Shown: positions 6,903 through 14,042 of the stretch, one piece after another
Numbering within the stretch: the stretch's first letter is position 1
Layout: the number at the start of each line of letters is the position of its first letter
Assembly: GCA_031416315.1 (NCBI GenBank)
Contig: JANOTL010000175.1
Span: forward strand, 1 to 18,392
Direction of reading: 5' to 3'
Length of the DNA: 18,392 nt
Origin: Pseudomonadota bacterium
GTDB lineage: Bacteria; Bdellovibrionota_B; Oligoflexia; Oligoflexales; CAIYRB01
Program-made: the position numbers and the translations under genes
The notes under the pieces: generated by a model
Told to the model about the DNA's origin: nothing
Databases searched by the model: none
The model's input: only the letters and a program-made list of their open reading frames with translations

Positions 6903-6929
6903 TCATGATTGGCGGAGGTTCCCCCACCC

Positions 6930-8342
6930 ATGCCTACGCCGCGTCTTTTTGCGCTCTGCCTGATGGCCGCCCTGAGTGAGCCCGCCCTCGCCGGCCCCTT
7001 CGCGATGTCCGGTCAGACCACGGCCAAATCCGTCGACGTCACCTACCGTCAGTCGACCGTCCCGACCGCCTCCGGCACGACGCGAGCCTCCAACTCGACG
7101 AGCGACGTCACCGAATCGACGAGCGTCGCGACGTACCGCAATTCGACCAAGCCTTCGGCGCAGTCCTCTTCCCGCGCGAGCGACGCGACCACCGATTCGA
7201 GCCAGGCTTCCTCCGAGAACTCCACCGACGCCTCCTCGCGCTCGAGCCGCTACACCACGAAGAACACCACGGCTCCGAGCTCCGAATATTCCGCCGAGTC
7301 GAGCAAAGCCACGAGCGACGTCTCGGATGCCACGACCAAAGGCACGACGAACGCGACAAACTCGACCACGAAGCAAACGCTGACCGTCTCCAAGTACACC
7401 ACCGCGGTCACGGGCGATTCGGTCAACGCCACCTACCAGAATTCGACGAAACCCTCCGAGCAGTCGACGACGCGCGCCAGCAAAGCGACGAGCAACGGCA
7501 CGACCGCGGCCACGAATCAAACCATCGCCACGACCAAGTGGACGACCGAGACCACGTACGCCAACACGACGAAGCCTTTGATCAACGGCACGACGGCCGG
7601 CACCAACGCCACGACCGTCGTCACCAACGCGACCAGCGCCGCGACCCGCGCCACTAGCGCGCAGACCGAAGCCTCCGTCGCGGCGACGCACGCCAGCTCG
7701 ACGAAGCCCTCGATCGCGTCTTCGGCGGAGACGACCGACTCGTCGAGCGGCGCGACGACCCGCGGCACCAAAAGCTCGAGTGACGCAACCGACACGTCCG
7801 TGCTCGCGACCTACAATCACTCGACGAAGCCGACGGGCGAATCCATCCGCAACACCTCGAACGCCACCTCCGACGTCACCACCGCCGCCAGCAAGAACAC
7901 GACCGAGGTCAGCTACAAGAACTCCACGAAGCCGACGGCCGAGTCCGCGACCAACACGAGCGAAGGCACGTCGAACGCCACGGGGCGCACGGCGCGGATC
8001 ACCCCGAACATGGCGAAGGTCACGGCCGACATGAGCACCGACACCTCGAAGAGCTCGGGCAACGTCGGCGTGTCCACGAGCAAGGCGCTCGACGCCTCCC
8101 TCGAAGGCACCACCAAGTTGACCTCCTTCGACGATTCGGTTGCGCTCGACCCCGAAACCGCCGACTCTTTGATCAAGGAGTCGTACGCGGCTTCAGGCTC
8201 GACCCTCGCGCGATTCGCCGGCCTGCTCGGCGTCGCTCCCGAGCGCCTCGCCGCCACGGTCGTCCGCGTCGCCCCCGAGAAGCCGACCCGCGCCGAGCTC
8301 GTGCGACTGATGCAGAAAGTGGTCCCTGCCCTCCGGAGCTGA
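6930..8342 (+). CDS. Secreted Ser/Thr-rich repeat protein with a small helical C-terminal domain (possibly DUF3015-like)
   Basis: RBS GGAGG at 6914-6918; signal peptide MPTPRLFALCLMAALSEPALA; about 370 aa of S/T/A-rich sequence with recurring TYxNSTKP; globular C-terminus ADSLIKESYAASGSTLARFAGLLGV. Confidence 0.85.
   Translation: MPTPRLFALCLMAALSEPALAGPFAMSGQTTAKSVDVTYRQSTVPTASGTTRASNSTSDVTESTSVATYRNSTKPSAQSSSRASDATTDSSQASSENSTDASSRSSRYTTKNTTAPSSEYSAESSKATSDVSDATTKGTTNATNSTTKQTLTVSKYTTAVTGDSVNATYQNSTKPSEQSTTRASKATSNGTTAATNQTIATTKWTTETTYANTTKPLINGTTAGTNATTVVTNATSAATRATSAQTEASVAATHASSTKPSIASSAETTDSSSGATTRGTKSSSDATDTSVLATYNHSTKPTGESIRNTSNATSDVTTAASKNTTEVSYKNSTKPTAESATNTSEGTSNATGRTARITPNMAKVTADMSTDTSKSSGNVGVSTSKALDASLEGTTKLTSFDDSVALDPETADSLIKESYAASGSTLARFAGLLGVAPERLAATVVRVAPEKPTRAELVRLMQKVVPALRS
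7041..7935 (+). repeat. Eight degenerate in-frame TYxNSTKP coding repeats
   Basis: Units start at 7041, 7131, 7254, 7431, 7554, 7686, 7809 and 7911 (spacings 30, 41, 59, 41, 44, 41, 34 codons). Confidence 0.8.
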
Positions 8343-8348
8343 ATCGCA

Positions 8349-10868
8349 ATGAAATGGTTGTTCCTCGCCCTCCTCAACCTCGCGCTCACCGCGCAGGCGC
8401 AGGGCGCGGGAAGCCTCCGCGACTTCGGGGTCGAGCTCGCCAATCGCGCCGACGTCGCCCCCTGGACCAAGGCGGAGGAAGCCGCCATCCTCGCCCTCCT
8501 GCGCTCGTTTCCGAAAGAGCTGCAGCACCTCGGCCGCATCCGCGTCCTAAAGGCGCCGATCGGCAGCAAGCGCCCCCTTCGGGATCACCTCGCCCCCGCG
8601 ATCCTCTACTGGCAGCTGGAGTTAGACGCGAAATCGCCGTCGCTCCTGGACCTCAAGCGCACTTTCGTCCATCACTGGCTCCACGTCTTCGACGCACAAG
8701 AGCACGTCTCGTCCTCCGCAGCCTGGCGCTCCCTCTCGGGCTGGCGTCGCCGCGAGTACTTCGGCGTCGAGATCCCGCTCCTCATGCGCGAAGCGGAGAA
8801 TCAGGATCTGCGCGCTTTCGCCTCGGAGACCGGCCTCGACAGCCCCGAAGAGGACTTCGCCACCTTCGGCGAGGAGTTCTTCGTCACACCGGACACCGCG
8901 ATCGAGGATTCGATCGCCTGCCGCACTCCCGACAAGTACGGCTTCTTCCGCCGCCAGTTCCCCGACTACAAGCCCTACCTCGACCAACCGCACATCAAGT
9001 GCCGCGGCTCGGGCGAAGGCTTCCTCGACGACCTCGTCTTCCTCGACCCCGTCACCGCCAGCCCGGTCCCGATGGGGCCGATCGACGCCAAGACCGTGCG
9101 CGGCTTCGAGCTGCTCTACGCCACTCCCGGCGTCGGCGACGCGAGCGAGATCGCCGGTCACCTCGTCCTCCGCATCAAGCTCGCGAACAATCCCGAGGCC
9201 GACCGGCTGGGCATCGAGAACCCCCGCGACCTGGTCGTCAGCTTCCTCGCCGACACCGAGCCGGCGAAAAGCGAAGGCGCGCCGAACGCGCAGGCTTCGG
9301 CGTCCGGGGAATGCCAGGAAGGCTTTTTCAACCTCGGCGCCGAGGGCAAGGCCGACTTCGACGCGATGCAGTCCGTGTTTCAGGCCCTGAAGGGGTTGAG
9401 CGGCGGTTTTCTGACGACGTTCGACCGGCAAACGCTGCAGCAAACGGTGAAATCCTACACCGTCGACCAAGACCGCAACCTCCTACGCTACGAGCTGAAG
9501 CTCGACGAGAAGCAGAAAGCCCGCCTCCTCGACCGCCTCTACCTCGCGAAGAAGAGCTACAAGGCCAAGTACTACTTCTTCGACCGCAATTGCGCCTCGA
9601 TCCTCGTGCAGCTCATTGGCGACGGCATCGGCGATCGCGACGTCGCCGAGTTCGATCCTTTCGTCGTGCCGCCGAACGCGCTCGTCGCGCTCATGATTCG
9701 TAAGGGCCTCGCCGCGCAGAGTCACCCTGCGTTCTATAGCTACCGGAAAAAGGGGCAACTCGCACAAGAGCTCCTCCGCACCGAGCTCGACGCCCTCAAG
9801 CTTAAGGATCCGCAGCGCGTCTGGCCGGATGCCGACGAGCTCCTCTCCCGTGACGAGGTCGAGCGCATGAGAGGCTACAAGGCGCTCGGCGCGCTCGCGA
9901 TCAATCACGCGGAGCTCTCCGGCCCCATCTACAAGCTCGGCTCGCTCGGCCAGGACGCAGAGCTCGTCCACCAGGAAAAGAGTCAGCGCTGCGAGCGGTA
10001 CACCTCCGAGGCGACGGCGGCGATCCGCAGCTTCCAACGCGAGGTCTTGAAACGCCGGCCCAAAGTCGCGCAGAGCTTCGCCGTCGACACCAACAAGGCC
10101 GTTGCCGAGCTCTACCAAGGCAACGAAGACGCCGCGGCGCGCGCCGGCTCCTCGCACACGAACCTCTCGAGCGTCACCGTCGGCGGCGGCGTCTCCGATG
10201 GCGAGCGCGTCGTCTCGCTCGGCAGCGCGCTCCACAAGCAGGACATGGGCTCACGCACCCGCCAATCGATGCAACGCGCAACCGCCGTCACGCTCGGCGA
10301 GGCACGGCTCGACTTCGGGCGCGACGGCCTTCGCGCTTGGCGCGTCACGGGTCTTTCCATCCGCAAATTCAAGGAGCGCCTCGACGAGGTCCCCAACTTC
10401 TTCGATCCGTACGGCACGTTCGGCTTGGGACTGCAGGTGTTGGACCTCGAAGGCCGTCCTTACGCACGCGAAAGTTTCGGGACCCTCGCCGGCGGGGAAA
10501 TCTCGTTCAACCTCGCGTCCTCGCGATTTCATGAGCATTACCTGTACGTCGCGGCCGGCGCGGCACTCGACGCCGACGCGAAAGACGGCGCGACGACGCC
10601 GCGCGCTGCGCTTCCCTTGCGTGTCGAGGCCCTGTGGACCTTTGACGCGGTCCGCCGCTTCCAGCTGCGCTCCAGCGCGGAATGGCGGCCCTCCTATTAT
10701 GCCGGGACTCTGCGCCGAGAGTTTTCGTACCGCGGCAGCCTTGACTACCTGGTAGGTGAGCCACACCTTGGTAGGCTGACCGAAAGCACCGAGCTGGTGC
10801 TACGACTGTCGGTCGAGCGAGGGAGGACGTATAATTGGCTACTGACCCTCGAGCTCAACCGCTGGTGA
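8349..10868 (+). CDS. DUF4105 / Lnb N-terminal-domain protein with an N-terminal zincin-like domain and a C-terminal beta-barrel-like region
   Basis: Signal peptide; HHWLH...SPEEDFA...EEFF; LLYA...AGHLVLRI (His271); YELKL...YYFFDRNCA (Cys415); beta-strand-rich C-terminus ending in LELNRW. Confidence 0.82.
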   Translation: MKWLFLALLNLALTAQAQGAGSLRDFGVELANRADVAPWTKAEEAAILALLRSFPKELQHLGRIRVLKAPIGSKRPLRDHLAPAILYWQLELDAKSPSLLDLKRTFVHHWLHVFDAQEHVSSSAAWRSLSGWRRREYFGVEIPLLMREAENQDLRAFASETGLDSPEEDFATFGEEFFVTPDTAIEDSIACRTPDKYGFFRRQFPDYKPYLDQPHIKCRGSGEGFLDDLVFLDPVTASPVPMGPIDAKTVRGFELLYATPGVGDASEIAGHLVLRIKLANNPEADRLGIENPRDLVVSFLADTEPAKSEGAPNAQASASGECQEGFFNLGAEGKADFDAMQSVFQALKGLSGGFLTTFDRQTLQQTVKSYTVDQDRNLLRYELKLDEKQKARLLDRLYLAKKSYKAKYYFFDRNCASILVQLIGDGIGDRDVAEFDPFVVPPNALVALMIRKGLAAQSHPAFYSYRKKGQLAQELLRTELDALKLKDPQRVWPDADELLSRDEVERMRGYKALGALAINHAELSGPIYKLGSLGQDAELVHQEKSQRCERYTSEATAAIRSFQREVLKRRPKVAQSFAVDTNKAVAELYQGNEDAAARAGSSHTNLSSVTVGGGVSDGERVVSLGSALHKQDMGSRTRQSMQRATAVTLGEARLDFGRDGLRAWRVTGLSIRKFKERLDEVPNFFDPYGTFGLGLQVLDLEGRPYARESFGTLAGGEISFNLASSRFHEHYLYVAAGAALDADAKDGATTPRAALPLRVEALWTFDAVRRFQLRSSAEWRPSYYAGTLRREFSYRGSLDYLVGEPHLGRLTESTELVLRLSVERGRTYNWLLTLELNRW

Positions 10869-11716
10869 TCGTTCACGTGTCCAGTCAATCCGACATCGAT
10901 GCCGAGCTCGCCCGTCGCGAGGAGGCCCGCCTCCGGAACCTCCCCCAGGTGAAGGACCAGACCGACCCGGACTATGTTCCGGTCATCGAGGACTTCGTCC
11001 CTTCGGCCGCGCGGTCCAAAGGCCACCTCTGGCGTCTCCCGAGCACTTGGAGCTCCCGCTCGGCCGTCGCCTGCTTCGTTCTCTTCGTCGCCTTCTCGAT
11101 CCGCCACTGGCTCGTTCCCTCGTCTGAGACCTGGTGGGCGAGCGGCACCCAGGTCTTCCAGAACGGCGAATGGTGGCGCACCTTCACGGCGCTGTTCACC
11201 CATTCCGACATGGGACACCTGCTCTCGAACGCGCCGCTTTTTCTGATCTTCGGCTGGTTCCTGCGCGCTTTCTTCGGCTGGCTCGCCTTTCCGCTCGCGA
11301 GCTTCGCGGTCGGCATCCTGAGCAACGTCGCCACGCTCGCCACGTATCCGGCGCAGACGCACCTCCTCGGCGCCTCCGGCATGCTCTACGGCATGGTCGC
11401 CCTCTGGCTCGTCTTCTACTGCAAGTTCGCGACGGAGTATCCGTTCCACATCCGCATGCTGCGCGCCGTCGGCGTGTCGATTTTATTGCTCTTCCCGACG
11501 ACCTACCAAAAGAACGTGAGCTACATGGCCCACTTCGCCGGATTCTTGATCGGCGGAGGCGTCGGATTCGCGCTGCTGCCTTTCATCCGGCCGCGCAGCG
11601 CGCTCGAGGATCGACATCCGGAATCACGCGTGCACGCCACCATTTCGGACGAGACCGTTCCGTCGCTCCACGCCCCAAGTCGGACACGCGTGCCGGGAAT
11701 TCCGCGCCGCGATTGA
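10865..11716 (+). CDS. Rhomboid family intramembrane serine protease
   Basis: GTGA overlap with the upstream stop; EWWRTFTALFTH..MGHLLSN, catalytic GASG, SYMAHFAGFLIG; multiple TM helices. Confidence 0.92.
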   Translation: MIVHVSSQSDIDAELARREEARLRNLPQVKDQTDPDYVPVIEDFVPSAARSKGHLWRLPSTWSSRSAVACFVLFVAFSIRHWLVPSSETWWASGTQVFQNGEWWRTFTALFTHSDMGHLLSNAPLFLIFGWFLRAFFGWLAFPLASFAVGILSNVATLATYPAQTHLLGASGMLYGMVALWLVFYCKFATEYPFHIRMLRAVGVSILLLFPTTYQKNVSYMAHFAGFLIGGGVGFALLPFIRPRSALEDRHPESRVHATISDETVPSLHAPSRTRVPGIPRRD

Positions 11717-11740: not shown

Positions 11741-12148
11741 ATGGAACAAGTTCGACTGAACGAACTGGCCTTCCTCCTCAAAGACCGTGCCGATGCTGGC
11801 GCGGTCTACGTGTTTGGCTCGTTCGCGACCGGACGATTCCGCGATGACAGTGACCTCGACCTTGCATTTATGACCCGTCGCGATGTCGATCGAGACGAGC
11901 TCTTTACGCTTCAAGCGGAGCTCGCGGCGATCGCCGGTCGTGAGGTTGACCTCGTAAAGTTCTCGGATGCTCCAGAACCGCTCCAGGCGGAGATTCTTCG
12001 TCAAGGCATTCTCGTTGCGTCATGGGATGAAAATCTACGCGCGACACAAGCAATGCAGGCGATGAGTCGCTATCAGCGCCTAAACGAAGAACGGCGTCCA
12101 TCACTTGACCTTCGACTAGGGAAAGACGGATGGAAACGCCTATCCTGA
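11741..12148 (+). CDS. mntA: Type VII TA antitoxin, MntA-like minimal nucleotidyltransferase
   Basis: VYVFGSFATGRFRDDSDLDLA (GS-X10-DXD), EVDLV, 135 aa, overlapping a downstream HEPN gene. Confidence 0.9.
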   Translation: MEQVRLNELAFLLKDRADAGAVYVFGSFATGRFRDDSDLDLAFMTRRDVDRDELFTLQAELAAIAGREVDLVKFSDAPEPLQAEILRQGILVASWDENLRATQAMQAMSRYQRLNEERRPSLDLRLGKDGWKRLS

Positions 12149-13527
12149 AGATCGACGCCCTGCGTCGCTGCATCCGACGCGTGCGGGAAGTCGCCGCGAG
12201 AGACCCTTCGATCACGAGTCTCGACGTTCAGGAAATCATCGTCCTGAACTTGCAGCGAGCCTGTGAGCAAGCCATCGATCTCGCAAATTTTGTTTGCGCT
12301 TTCGAGAAGCTCGACATCCCGAGGACCTCCGCGGAGGTTTTCACGATTTTGGAGCAAGCCTCGATCTTGGCGCCGCTTTTGGCGCTTTCCATGCGCAGAA
12401 TGGTTGGCTTCAGAACCGTGGCTGTTCATGAGTATCGGCGCCTGGATCCGGCGATTGTCCGATCGATCGTGACGACAAAGCTGGAAGATTTCGAGTTTTT
12501 CGTCGCGGCGGTCGGCAAGCGACTGAAAATCGCGACCGACGATCGTCCAAAAGACGTCCATGCCGCCTCAAATCGAATCGCCAGCCTGACCGTGATTCGC
12601 ATCGACCTCGAAGGAGATCACCTAGGGGACGACTTCACGGTCTCCTTTGCGATTGGCGACTCGCGGGAGTCGATGCCATGCCAGATAATTTCGGGTCAGT
12701 CTCAAACGTTCCGTCGAACCCTCGCGCACTTTTCGATCGACGATCTCTCGCGACCTCTGAAAATAAAGCTATCAACTGTCGAGAAGGACCCCATCGTCGA
12801 CGATCTCGGCGAGTCCAGTTTGGACGTTTCGCAGTCGGGCGAGGGGTGGGAGAATCAGATCTTGATCGCCGAGATCCAAGTTCAAGGCAAAGGCCGCGGA
12901 GAATCTCGCAAACGCGCAAAGATGACCGTCGTTTCTGAGTTGAATGTCACGGCTGGGCGCCTGTTCGTCGACGACATTTCGCCCGATGGTTGGCTCATCG
13001 CCCAGCTGGACGGCGGCTCTCAGGTGATTTTGCCTCACAGTCTTGAAATTGAGTGTTCGCGTCAGGAAGCGGGTCGCGAACTGTTCAAAATTCTCGAGGG
13101 CGCCCACCTCGGCAGACTCGCCAGTGCCGCACTCGGCGCGGGAAACTTGAGCCACTTCGTCCTCAATATGCCCCGAATGGCGCCAGCACGTCTTTCGTAC
13201 GCAAGGCAGGACAACCGCATGCACATCGAAGGCCTGGGCGACTTTGCGACGAGGCCGAATGAGTCAAATCCAGTTCCGGTCGGAACCTATCCGATCTGCA
13301 TCCCTGATTTGCCGCACGCTCGGGTCAGACAGTATTTGAGGCAGGCGCCCCACGCAAAATTGTGGTTTCGAATCGGAATGGAGGGTGATCGTTACATCCA
13401 CCCTGGTACCGTGACGCAAGGCTGCATCACGGTTTCGCAGATTGACTCTTGGGAGCAGATCTATCACCACCTTATCTACTCCCGTTCCGGCGACCAGCAA
13501 ACGGTCGGCACGTTAGAAGTGACATGA
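12130..13527 (+). CDS. hepT: HepT/DUF86 HEPN ribonuclease toxin fused to a beta-sandwich-like region and an L,D-transpeptidase/Tlde1-like domain
   Basis: aa 1-~135: LNLQRACEQAIDLA, GFRTVAVHEY (R95-X4-H100-X-Y102). The uninterrupted frame continues to GTYPICIPD, WFRIG and YIHPGTVTQGCITV (H424, C432). Confidence 0.85.
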   Translation: METPILKIDALRRCIRRVREVAARDPSITSLDVQEIIVLNLQRACEQAIDLANFVCAFEKLDIPRTSAEVFTILEQASILAPLLALSMRRMVGFRTVAVHEYRRLDPAIVRSIVTTKLEDFEFFVAAVGKRLKIATDDRPKDVHAASNRIASLTVIRIDLEGDHLGDDFTVSFAIGDSRESMPCQIISGQSQTFRRTLAHFSIDDLSRPLKIKLSTVEKDPIVDDLGESSLDVSQSGEGWENQILIAEIQVQGKGRGESRKRAKMTVVSELNVTAGRLFVDDISPDGWLIAQLDGGSQVILPHSLEIECSRQEAGRELFKILEGAHLGRLASAALGAGNLSHFVLNMPRMAPARLSYARQDNRMHIEGLGDFATRPNESNPVPVGTYPICIPDLPHARVRQYLRQAPHAKLWFRIGMEGDRYIHPGTVTQGCITVSQIDSWEQIYHHLIYSRSGDQQTVGTLEVT

Positions 13528-14042
13528 GCATGCGGACTTTGCTGCTCTCGATAGTCTTGGCGGCGGGGACGTTCTTCGGCCTGTTGACGAGCTCGCCGAT
13601 GGCATTGCAACGCTACGGCCGTAAGCTTTTCGTTGGAATGCATGTCGAGCCATTCGACGAACCGACGAAGGAAGGCGCCTTCAACGTTTATTTCGTCGAC
13701 ACGGCTGAACATTCAGAATACGGCATGGATCCGAAGAGCCTCTCCCAAACCCGAGTCGTCAATGAGCAAGGTGGCCACCTCCACATCCTTGAGTTCAAAG
13801 GCACCGAGTCTTTTGGAATTCTGATCGTTCACGATGGTGTCCGTTTTCTGCCCGCGGAAGCCCTTATGGTCGTGACCGACGACCGCAACGTCGTCACGGC
13901 GATTTTTCGCAACGTCTCCATCGCAGATGTCCGCCTCGCAGGCGAAGCAGCAAAGGGCGAAAAGAGGGCGGTCGATCGCGTGCGCCGTGGGCTAGCTAAA
14001 GCTCAAGCTAAGTTCGACTGGTTCCTCGACGCGGCCCTTTAG
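13524..14042 (+). CDS. Membrane-anchored/exported hypothetical protein, candidate partner or immunity protein
   Basis: ATGA overlap with the hepT-fusion stop; hydrophobic N-terminus MSMRTLLLSIVLAAGTFFGLL; same low-GC codon style as the island. Confidence 0.75.
   Translation: MSMRTLLLSIVLAAGTFFGLLTSSPMALQRYGRKLFVGMHVEPFDEPTKEGAFNVYFVDTAEHSEYGMDPKSLSQTRVVNEQGGHLHILEFKGTESFGILIVHDGVRFLPAEALMVVTDDRNVVTAIFRNVSIADVRLAGEAAKGEKRAVDRVRRGLAKAQAKFDWFLDAAL

Follow-up and report, generated by a model that had tools for sequence, protein, structure and literature searches.

A HepT toxin gene fused to C2 and L,D-transpeptidase-fold domains, between mntA and a candidate immunity gene, in an Oligoflexales bacterium

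The toxin of a toxin-antitoxin (TA) module works in the cytoplasm of the cell that makes it, and effector-immunity pairs act on neighbours. Two motifs, GSX10DXD and RX4HXY, are the signature of the HepT/MntA type VII TA modules, in which MntA AMPylates HepT covalently (PMC7641770). The fusions listed for DUF86 HEPN domains are to MNT, to a resolvase-like nuclease and to methylases, in a paper whose main text does not contain the word 'peptidoglycan' (PMC3710099), and another one deals with MNT-HEPN fusions only (PMC13000451). Among toxins directed at the cell wall, Tlde1 requires a His and a Cys for its periplasmic toxicity and has variable immunity proteins of the envelope (10.1101/2020.02.18.954545; PMC9638812), Tox-LD-peptidase is listed with Imm16 and Imm57 (PMC3482391), and DUF4157 proteins carry DUF4157 at the N-terminus and their toxins at the C-terminus (PMC8213781). 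The locus described here lies in a stretch of 18,392 nucleotides (contig JANOTL010000175.1 of assembly GCA_031416315.1, a Pseudomonadota bacterium of the Oligoflexales), which as a whole is called the window. It is a cassette of three contiguous genes, all on the (+) strand at 11741..14042: mntA, a gene encoding HepT in fusion with a C2 domain, a small beta domain and a domain of the L,D-transpeptidase fold (465 amino acids, aa), and a partner gene of 172 aa. The fusion is real and conserved, and apparently undescribed; no description of its architecture was found in the open-access literature, supplementary tables (e.g. of PMC3482391 and PMC3710099) being outside the scope of that search.

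The fusion gene is one open frame from 12130 to 13527, with no stop near aa 135, and its product is not a toxin of the single-domain type of ~130-140 aa: it has 465 aa and four domains. A first-pass annotation made from the DNA sequence alone had already pointed to this long frame, to a canonical MntA overlapping it, to the presence of Y102 of RX4HXY and to an ATGA-coupled envelope gene of 172 aa, all of which stood up. MntA passes the NF047752 cut-off and its GSX10DXD motif reads, in the translation, G26-S27-x10-D38-x-D40; mntA and the fusion gene overlap by 19 nt; the fusion stop codon and the partner start share an ATGA; and the partner has a hydrophobic N-terminus. The HepT motif of the window copy is R95-T-V-A-V-H100-E-Y102, within a match to NF047751 that covers aa 7-124 with 118.7 bits (cut-off 60). 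Nor is the architecture a singleton. Besides the window's protein (P0001), nine further intact fusions were found (P0004, P0005, P0008, P0160 and P0164-P0168), and because these exist at full length the fusion is neither chance nor an assembly slip. The ten intact copies measure 442-469 aa (461-469 aa in nine of them), and the others are 39-49% identical to the window's. R95, H100, Y102, H424 and C432 are nevertheless present in 10/10, W412 and W441 are retained in all ten as well, and mean pairwise identity is 0.63 for HepT, 0.17 for the linker, 0.32 for C2, 0.41 for the small beta domain and 0.48 for the peptidase. An identical fusion protein is listed by two sources, NCBI and Logan, possibly from the same underlying reads. 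Positions of the cassette's genes and domains are collected in Table 1.

Table 1. Genes and domains of the cassette (window positions; pLDDT, predicted local distance difference test; rmsd, root-mean-square deviation; ORF, open reading frame)
Feature	Position	Strand	Evidence
mntA, type VII TA nucleotidyltransferase antitoxin (135 aa)	11741..12148	+	NF047752 99.3 bits (cut-off 60); PF18765 E 8e-21; GSX10DXD intact
Fusion gene encoding HepT, C2, small beta and L,D-peptidase-fold domains (465 aa)	12130..13527	+	single ORF; ten intact copies; model pLDDT 91.9
HepT ribonuclease (RNase) domain (aa 1-131)	12130..12522	+	R95, H100, AMP-acceptor Y102; Thr96; NF047751; Z 20.3, rmsd 2.0, 131 aligned to 5yep_B
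Flexible linker (aa 132-148)	12523..12573	+	pLDDT <50 at 140-145; length kept, mean identity 0.17
C2 domain (aa 149-274)	12574..12951	+	Foldseek E ~2e-5; myoferlin C2A at Z 10.7, rmsd 3.1, 118 aligned (match aa 146-274)
Small all-beta domain (aa 275-345)	12952..13164	+	six short strands in model; G287-W288, E323 conserved
L,D-transpeptidase-fold catalytic domain (aa 346-465)	13165..13527	+	H424, T429, C432; Z 11.0 to Pgp2 6xj7
172-aa partner: N-terminal hydrophobic anchor + peroxiredoxin-like fold, no Cys; candidate immunity protein	13524..14042	+	ATGA overlap; model pLDDT 73

The domains were assigned on an AlphaFold2 model of P0001, built on a 94-row alignment (pLDDT 91.9, predicted template-modelling score 0.71) and compared with known folds by VIA-align, the source of the Z scores; Foldseek agrees for HepT and C2. 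Nine L,D-peptidase entries match aa 350-465 at Z 9.5-11.0, among them Pgp2 (6xj7; Z 11.0, rmsd 2.4, 99 residues aligned), an L,D-transpeptidase of M. smegmatis (4xvo; Z 10.9) and Csd6 (4xzz; Z 10.7), and Tlde1a itself is not among the matches listed. The motif HPGTVTQGCITV, containing H424 and C432, begins at aa 424 and is followed by 30 aa of protein; the annotation was thus right about the presence of a His/Cys motif and wrong in having the extension end in it. Its claim of a YkuD/Tlde1-like C-terminal domain is borne out by the fold (Z 11.0) and by the invariance of the His and Cys: H424, G431 and C432 are found in 94/94 aligned relatives, and the H-x7-C spacing in all 133 motif matches among 153 proteins, with a Ser at the S/T site in 108 and a Thr in 25. 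At the level of profiles, Tlde1 gives weak matches in 8/94 relatives (best 7e-4) and two relatives, P0107 and P0142, pass the YkuD cut-off; the ESM Atlas places the last domain with YkuD, Tlde1 and DUF5675 clusters at 0.86-0.89, which we use as a lead only. Pfam at relaxed E gave nothing for the extension or the partner, PDB sequences searched with profiles of three alignments yielded no credible match, and a viral fold library returned unnamed or weak matches only.

While HepT and the peptidase were both part of the annotation's domain picture, the C2 domain and the peroxiredoxin fold of the partner had been missed. Five acidic residues of the C2 domain (D163, D168, E218, D220 and D225) are invariant in 10/10 fusions; in the wider extension family D163 is found in 34/51 and D168 in 35/51. 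Their spacing resembles that of the Ca2+-ligand loops 1 and 3 of C2 domains, and the domain is, on the strength of these residues, a putative Ca2+ binder. For the beta domain of aa 275-345 no fold match was seen among the matches listed by Foldseek and VIA-align; 'SH3-like' is our own label for it and is supported by no fold match.

Outside the fusions, the extension is a large free-standing family of 420 clusters (50% cluster level, E<=0.001). Among 41 scanned relatives, chosen mostly for length, 12 have eCIS_core/DUF4157 upstream of the module, which forms the C-terminal tip, a C70 peptidase domain is present in one and Amidase_3 in another; P0001 itself has no match to PF13699 (DUF4157). 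To judge from the sequences, the extension seems to behave like a polymorphic toxin with an effector-immunity pattern. The architectures vary: the module stands with Amidase_3 in P0087, with DUF5675 and eCIS_core in P0116, behind a second Tlde1-looking domain in P0107 and behind the C70 peptidase in P0059, and in P0111 two copies stand in tandem, the first of them without the Cys.

The placing of the partner gene, which the annotation had likened to that of an immunity gene, recurs across the family. An ORF with a hydrophobic N-terminus starts between -3 and +71 nt from the stop codon of the module in 17 of 21 loci, with a four-base overlap in 11; in this count the most hydrophobic start was chosen, some near-copies were included, and several further loci, either truncated or nearly duplicates, were omitted. 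Of the four loci that deviate, one is unclear, one lies at a contig end, one is on a viral contig and one on a Bacillus plasmid. These downstream partners form at least six groups without BLAST links to one another, a diversity that matches the behaviour of immunity genes and supports the effector-immunity reading. The window's partner is modelled with a pLDDT of 73, and its top 14 fold matches are all peroxiredoxins (Z 7.3-9.7), with BcpB (5epf) the best (Z 9.7, rmsd 4.2, 114 aligned; best Foldseek E 1e-3). It contains no Cys, hence no peroxidase chemistry is expected of this copy; several partner paralogues retain a CxxxC-like pair. In two Flavobacteriales loci, too, the module is followed by a peroxiredoxin-like partner; what connects these partners with the window's is alignment and shared fold, and not a direct BLAST match. 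The partner has no Pfam family and is, by Pfam, neither Imm16 nor Imm57. A complex predicted for aa 275-465 with the partner, whose fold is itself uncertain, scored 0.00, which counts neither for nor against a contact. On its model, the partner is a candidate immunity protein made from a dead peroxiredoxin. In loci of the Thiodictyon type (L029, L033, L041 and L045) the unfused effector is accompanied by an unrelated helical lipoprotein, and the gene adjoining them is a putative Rpn-like transposase gene.

All 11 fused HepT domains, i.e. the ten intact ones and a broken one in genome G001, fall on one side of a branch with a Shimodaira-Hasegawa-like approximate likelihood-ratio (SH-aLRT) support of 99 when 26 HEPN domains are placed in a quick tree; the remaining 15, a small outgroup, come from 14 MNT-HEPN fusions and a single solo HepT. 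A quick tree of the extension (59 rows, including the five fusions then known and leaving out short relatives without C2) places these five, the G001 copy and the HepT-less P0006 and P0016 on one branch with a support of 96; P0016 is nearly identical to the extension piece of G001. The simplest reading of these sequences would be a single origin of the fusion, followed by losses. The G001 locus (L014 5247-7482, G001:C11) keeps the gene order of the window, with mntA, the broken fusion and the partner, and the break, a frameshift and a deletion, lies just past the RNase motif. In the cluster of P0005, known from protein records alone, two records stop directly after His100 and one begins after it. 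A remnant in G002 (L018 4902-5503, G002:C14) consists of the last 24 peptidase codons, identical to the end of P0006, then an intact partner gene, and in its sequence would resemble an orphan immunity gene.

The module was found in 5/131 genomes of the class, all five belonging to the window's family, and one closely similar further locus carries the taxon label Oligoflexales. That a close relative of the cassette exists elsewhere is indicated by P0185, a partner of 172 aa that shares 88% identity with the window's and lies on a contig of 1650 bp. Scans of genome and metagenome contigs with the fusion alignment gave no relative; those with extension alignments gave 7, 20 and 2 loci, HepT being seen solely at the G001 locus among the ORFs listed. 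Phage records gave no match and two plasmids matched. The window genome itself has an unfused paralogue (L001 2178-6080, G000:C125), where AbiEi and AbiEii genes, a 321-aa C2-beta-peptidase gene and two tandem partner paralogues adjoin a recombinase fragment. Unfused genes with two partners occur also in G011, G002 and G007, that of G007 being frameshifted. Upstream of the unfused effector of G011 (G011:C18, L015 5258-6204) are two small overlapping genes that resemble an 'MqsR/MqsA-like' pair of toxin and zinc-ribbon antitoxin; no TA match was obtained in Pfam, NCBIfam or PADLOC, and they are not counted as TA genes here. The first-pass annotation mentioned neither the unfused paralogue of this genome nor the recurrent loss of HepT in relatives nor the Thr at position 96.

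At its site, the cassette looks, from its sequence, like a three-gene insertion: its genes have a GC content of 55-57% against 65% for the genome, and GC at third codon positions is 0.54-0.70 against 0.83-0.85 in the flanking genes. Upstream lies a rhomboid gene (10835-11716), and in 0/11 relatives is the cassette found within 1.5 kb of the rhomboid. A clean empty site was not found, the ABC gene being likewise missing near the rhomboid in all 11, and at the locus neither flanking repeats nor a sigma-70 promoter nor a convincing terminator was found. Further upstream, 6909-8342 of the window encodes a Ser/Thr/Ala-rich protein of 477 aa, which begins in a signal-like manner and contains repeats (YxNSTKP); an Lnb_N-domain gene (8349-10868) follows it.

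How would such a protein work? We lean, tentatively, towards a type VII TA module that has captured a cell-wall effector-immunity pair, the RNase acting in the producer and the predicted peptidase outside the cytoplasm. With both motifs observed, MntA would AMPylate Y102 and hold the RNase off, as its described relatives do (PMC7641770). If mntA were lost or failed, the RNase would arrest or kill the cell and so stabilise the three-gene island; it may alternatively kill under stress. Since the fusion has no signal peptide, contact with peptidoglycan could come only upon lysis or through another route. There, extracellular or periplasmic Ca2+ would let the C2 domain dock on membranes, and the domain with H424 and C432 would, given its fold and residues, trim or cut peptide stems in the manner of Tlde1, Csd6 and Pgp2. 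The membrane-anchored, cysteine-less partner, to go by its position and fold, may bind it and protect the producer and its kin. Three relatives have N-termini resembling signal peptides, which means that the domain can work outside the cytoplasm.

Several points weigh against this captured-cassette model. It gives no reason for a fusion over two adjacent genes. Delivery is its gap: the fusion has no signal peptide, none of its segments exceeds a hydrophobicity of 1.65 on a 19-residue scale, and a hydrophobic N-terminus was seen in just 4 of 150 relatives, the three signal-like ones included. The secretion search covered markers of type VI secretion systems (T6SS) and of extracellular contractile injection systems (eCIS), other secretion systems not being searched for; VipB, Phage_GPD, sheath and PAAR were found in 0/5 carrier genomes (91-96% complete) by searches whose positive controls worked, and eCIS_core in 0/5 by a search without a positive control. 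By Pfam, P0001 matches neither YkuD (PF03734) nor Tlde1 (PF10908). On the RNase side, residue 96 is Thr in the window copy and Asn in 25 of the 26 HEPN domains compared, including 9/10 intact fusions, so that with RT in place of the conserved RN this RNase may be weakened. HepT is, moreover, broken or lost in G001, in P0155/P0157 with P0154, and in P0006/P0158; the RNase is the best-conserved domain and yet repeatedly disabled, which could also fit a costly, active toxin. Finally, the trees are quick ones with a small HEPN outgroup, and full gene context covers only two fusion loci, the window's and that of G001, the latter broken.

A candidate for an eCIS route was a gp19-like tube gene, found in 5/5 carrier genomes. 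It was rejected: the gene is a lone one, found in 11/11 other genomes of the family, carriers or not. In the window genome (G000:C222:21620-22108; L056 13621-14109) it has a hydrophobic N-terminal stretch and housekeeping-like neighbours, and no sheath or spike was found in the genome; T4 gp19-like matches occur also in 35/95 genomes of the order. It is possibly a domesticated tail-tube protein.

A bolder reading would have one polypeptide kill in two compartments under two antidotes, AMPylation for the RNase and a cysteine-less peroxiredoxin for the peptidase, with a Ca2+-binding C2 domain as the switch. Stress or phage damage would trigger suicide, and the ensuing lysis would free a weapon that attacks walls. 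We regard this as possible, though doubtful.

Among the rival readings, a two-stage suicide or anti-phage device survives best, even if we think it unlikely. Here an influx of Ca2+ or membrane damage would recruit the C2 domain and unleash or cluster the HEPN RNase, while the peptidase, passing the damaged membrane, would attack the wall of its own cell and hasten lysis, the partner buffering leaks. A sensor gating the HEPN RNase in anti-phage defence had been the alternative put forward in the first-pass annotation. This reading is consistent with the C2 acids being kept in every fusion and less so in the wider family, and with HEPN RNases having to dimerise and fused TA systems being able to act as sensors (PMC13000451). 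It is also in line with the lack of an export machine among the T6SS and eCIS markers searched, and with the neighbours of stand-alone paralogues, where genes for AbiE, a recombinase, Schlafen-AlbA and an ATPase-nuclease are present. Yet PADLOC 2.0 gave no match for the four fusions scanned (P0001, P0004, P0005 and P0008), MntA matching PDC-S09 as a generic nucleotidyltransferase, and the C2 domain predates the fusion and is present in stand-alone effectors that have no RNase.

Another possibility is an exported toxin with two warheads, which would damage first the wall and then the RNA of a target, MntA and the partner being two immunity proteins. The first-pass annotation had proposed something of this sort, with both activities as toxins of one delivered polypeptide, and this part of it is unsupported in that form: no export route was found among the T6SS and eCIS markers searched, and the RNase would probably leave the cell disabled. 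AMPylation being covalent, an N-terminal RNase would exit AMPylated on Y102 and would probably be no second warhead (deduced from PMC7641770). Both active sites are retained in 10/10 copies, one antidote gene lies on each side of the fusion, and DUF4157 proteins are proven to carry the peptidase module as a passenger (12/41 scanned). Against these stand the absence of a signal peptide and of T6SS/eCIS markers, targets in different compartments and the lack of an identified translocation domain, and we consider the reading quite unlikely.

Could the fusion then be a frozen accident, a lost stop codon having joined two neighbours on a mobile island, with HepT as the addiction toxin and a tolerated tail, so that the fusion as such has no function? 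TA genes do lie directly upstream of the unfused paralogue in the same genome, the linker sequence is not conserved, breaks recur in or beside HepT, and the window copy has Thr96. A dispensable tail would however be expected to decay, and this one keeps H424, C432, W412, W441 and the C2 acids in 10/10 despite 39-49% identity to the window's; nine of ten copies stay within 461-469 aa and the partner gene is retained. We therefore think an accident very improbable. Hardly credible, lastly, is a housekeeping enzyme that remodels its own cell's wall under stress while the partner shields the catalytic Cys from oxidation, for although the fold comparison ranks housekeeping L,D-peptidases (Pgp2, Csd6, LdtMt) first and several partner paralogues have a CxxxC-like pair, the window's partner has no cysteine, other loci substitute unrelated envelope proteins for it, and the enzyme has no signal peptide and a patchy distribution (5/131 genomes).

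A conserved gene here joins TA and effector-immunity logic with both candidate antidotes in place; if the two-compartment reading is true, it would be a functional bridge between TA modules and polymorphic toxins. Because the unfused state, an AbiE pair beside a free effector, exists in the same genome, the step from neighbour to fusion is directly testable. Should the fusion prove mechanistically dull, three novelties would still remain: an unannotated family of ~420 clusters of likely cell-wall toxins that share the L,D-peptidase fold; a C2 domain in a bacterium, its acidic loops conserved, in the position usual for trafficking domains; and a family of candidate immunity proteins derived from a dead peroxiredoxin.

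Strictly, the fusion is neither a single-domain HepT nor a T6SS-linked Tlde1, and it joins two known kinds. With HepT/MntA of Shewanella oneidensis (SO_3166/SO_3165; PDB 5yep, 6m6u; PMC7641770) the locus has in common the gene order, the overlap, both motifs and the fold, whereas its HepT has 334 extra residues in three domains and Thr96 instead of Asn, and a third, coupled envelope gene follows. With Tlde1/Tae5 (DUF2778, PF10908) and Tox-LD-peptidase (10.1101/2020.02.18.954545; PMC9638812; PMC3482391) it shares the L,D-transpeptidase fold, the catalytic His and Cys, an S/T two residues before GC and, across its family, an adjacent variable envelope gene; in contrast, Tlde1a has H121 and C131 where the window's family has H-x7-C, the window locus has no T6SS link, and P0001 has no Pfam match to Tlde1. 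Proteins of the DUF4157 polymorphic toxin kind (PMC8213781) can end in the same module of beta domain and peptidase (12/41 scanned), but in the window HepT and C2 occupy the DUF4157 slot, and the search of the genome gave no eCIS cluster. The partner has the fold of the peroxiredoxins BCP/PrxQ and Tpx (5epf, 9f5v) and differs from them by its membrane anchor and the absence of cysteine. The FhepTA MNT-HEPN proteins (PMC13000451) likewise hold a HepT-type RNase within a fusion and control it, as is predicted here, by AMPylation; there it is the antitoxin that is fused, whereas in the window MntA is a protein of its own and HepT is joined to a second enzyme, predicted to be for another compartment.

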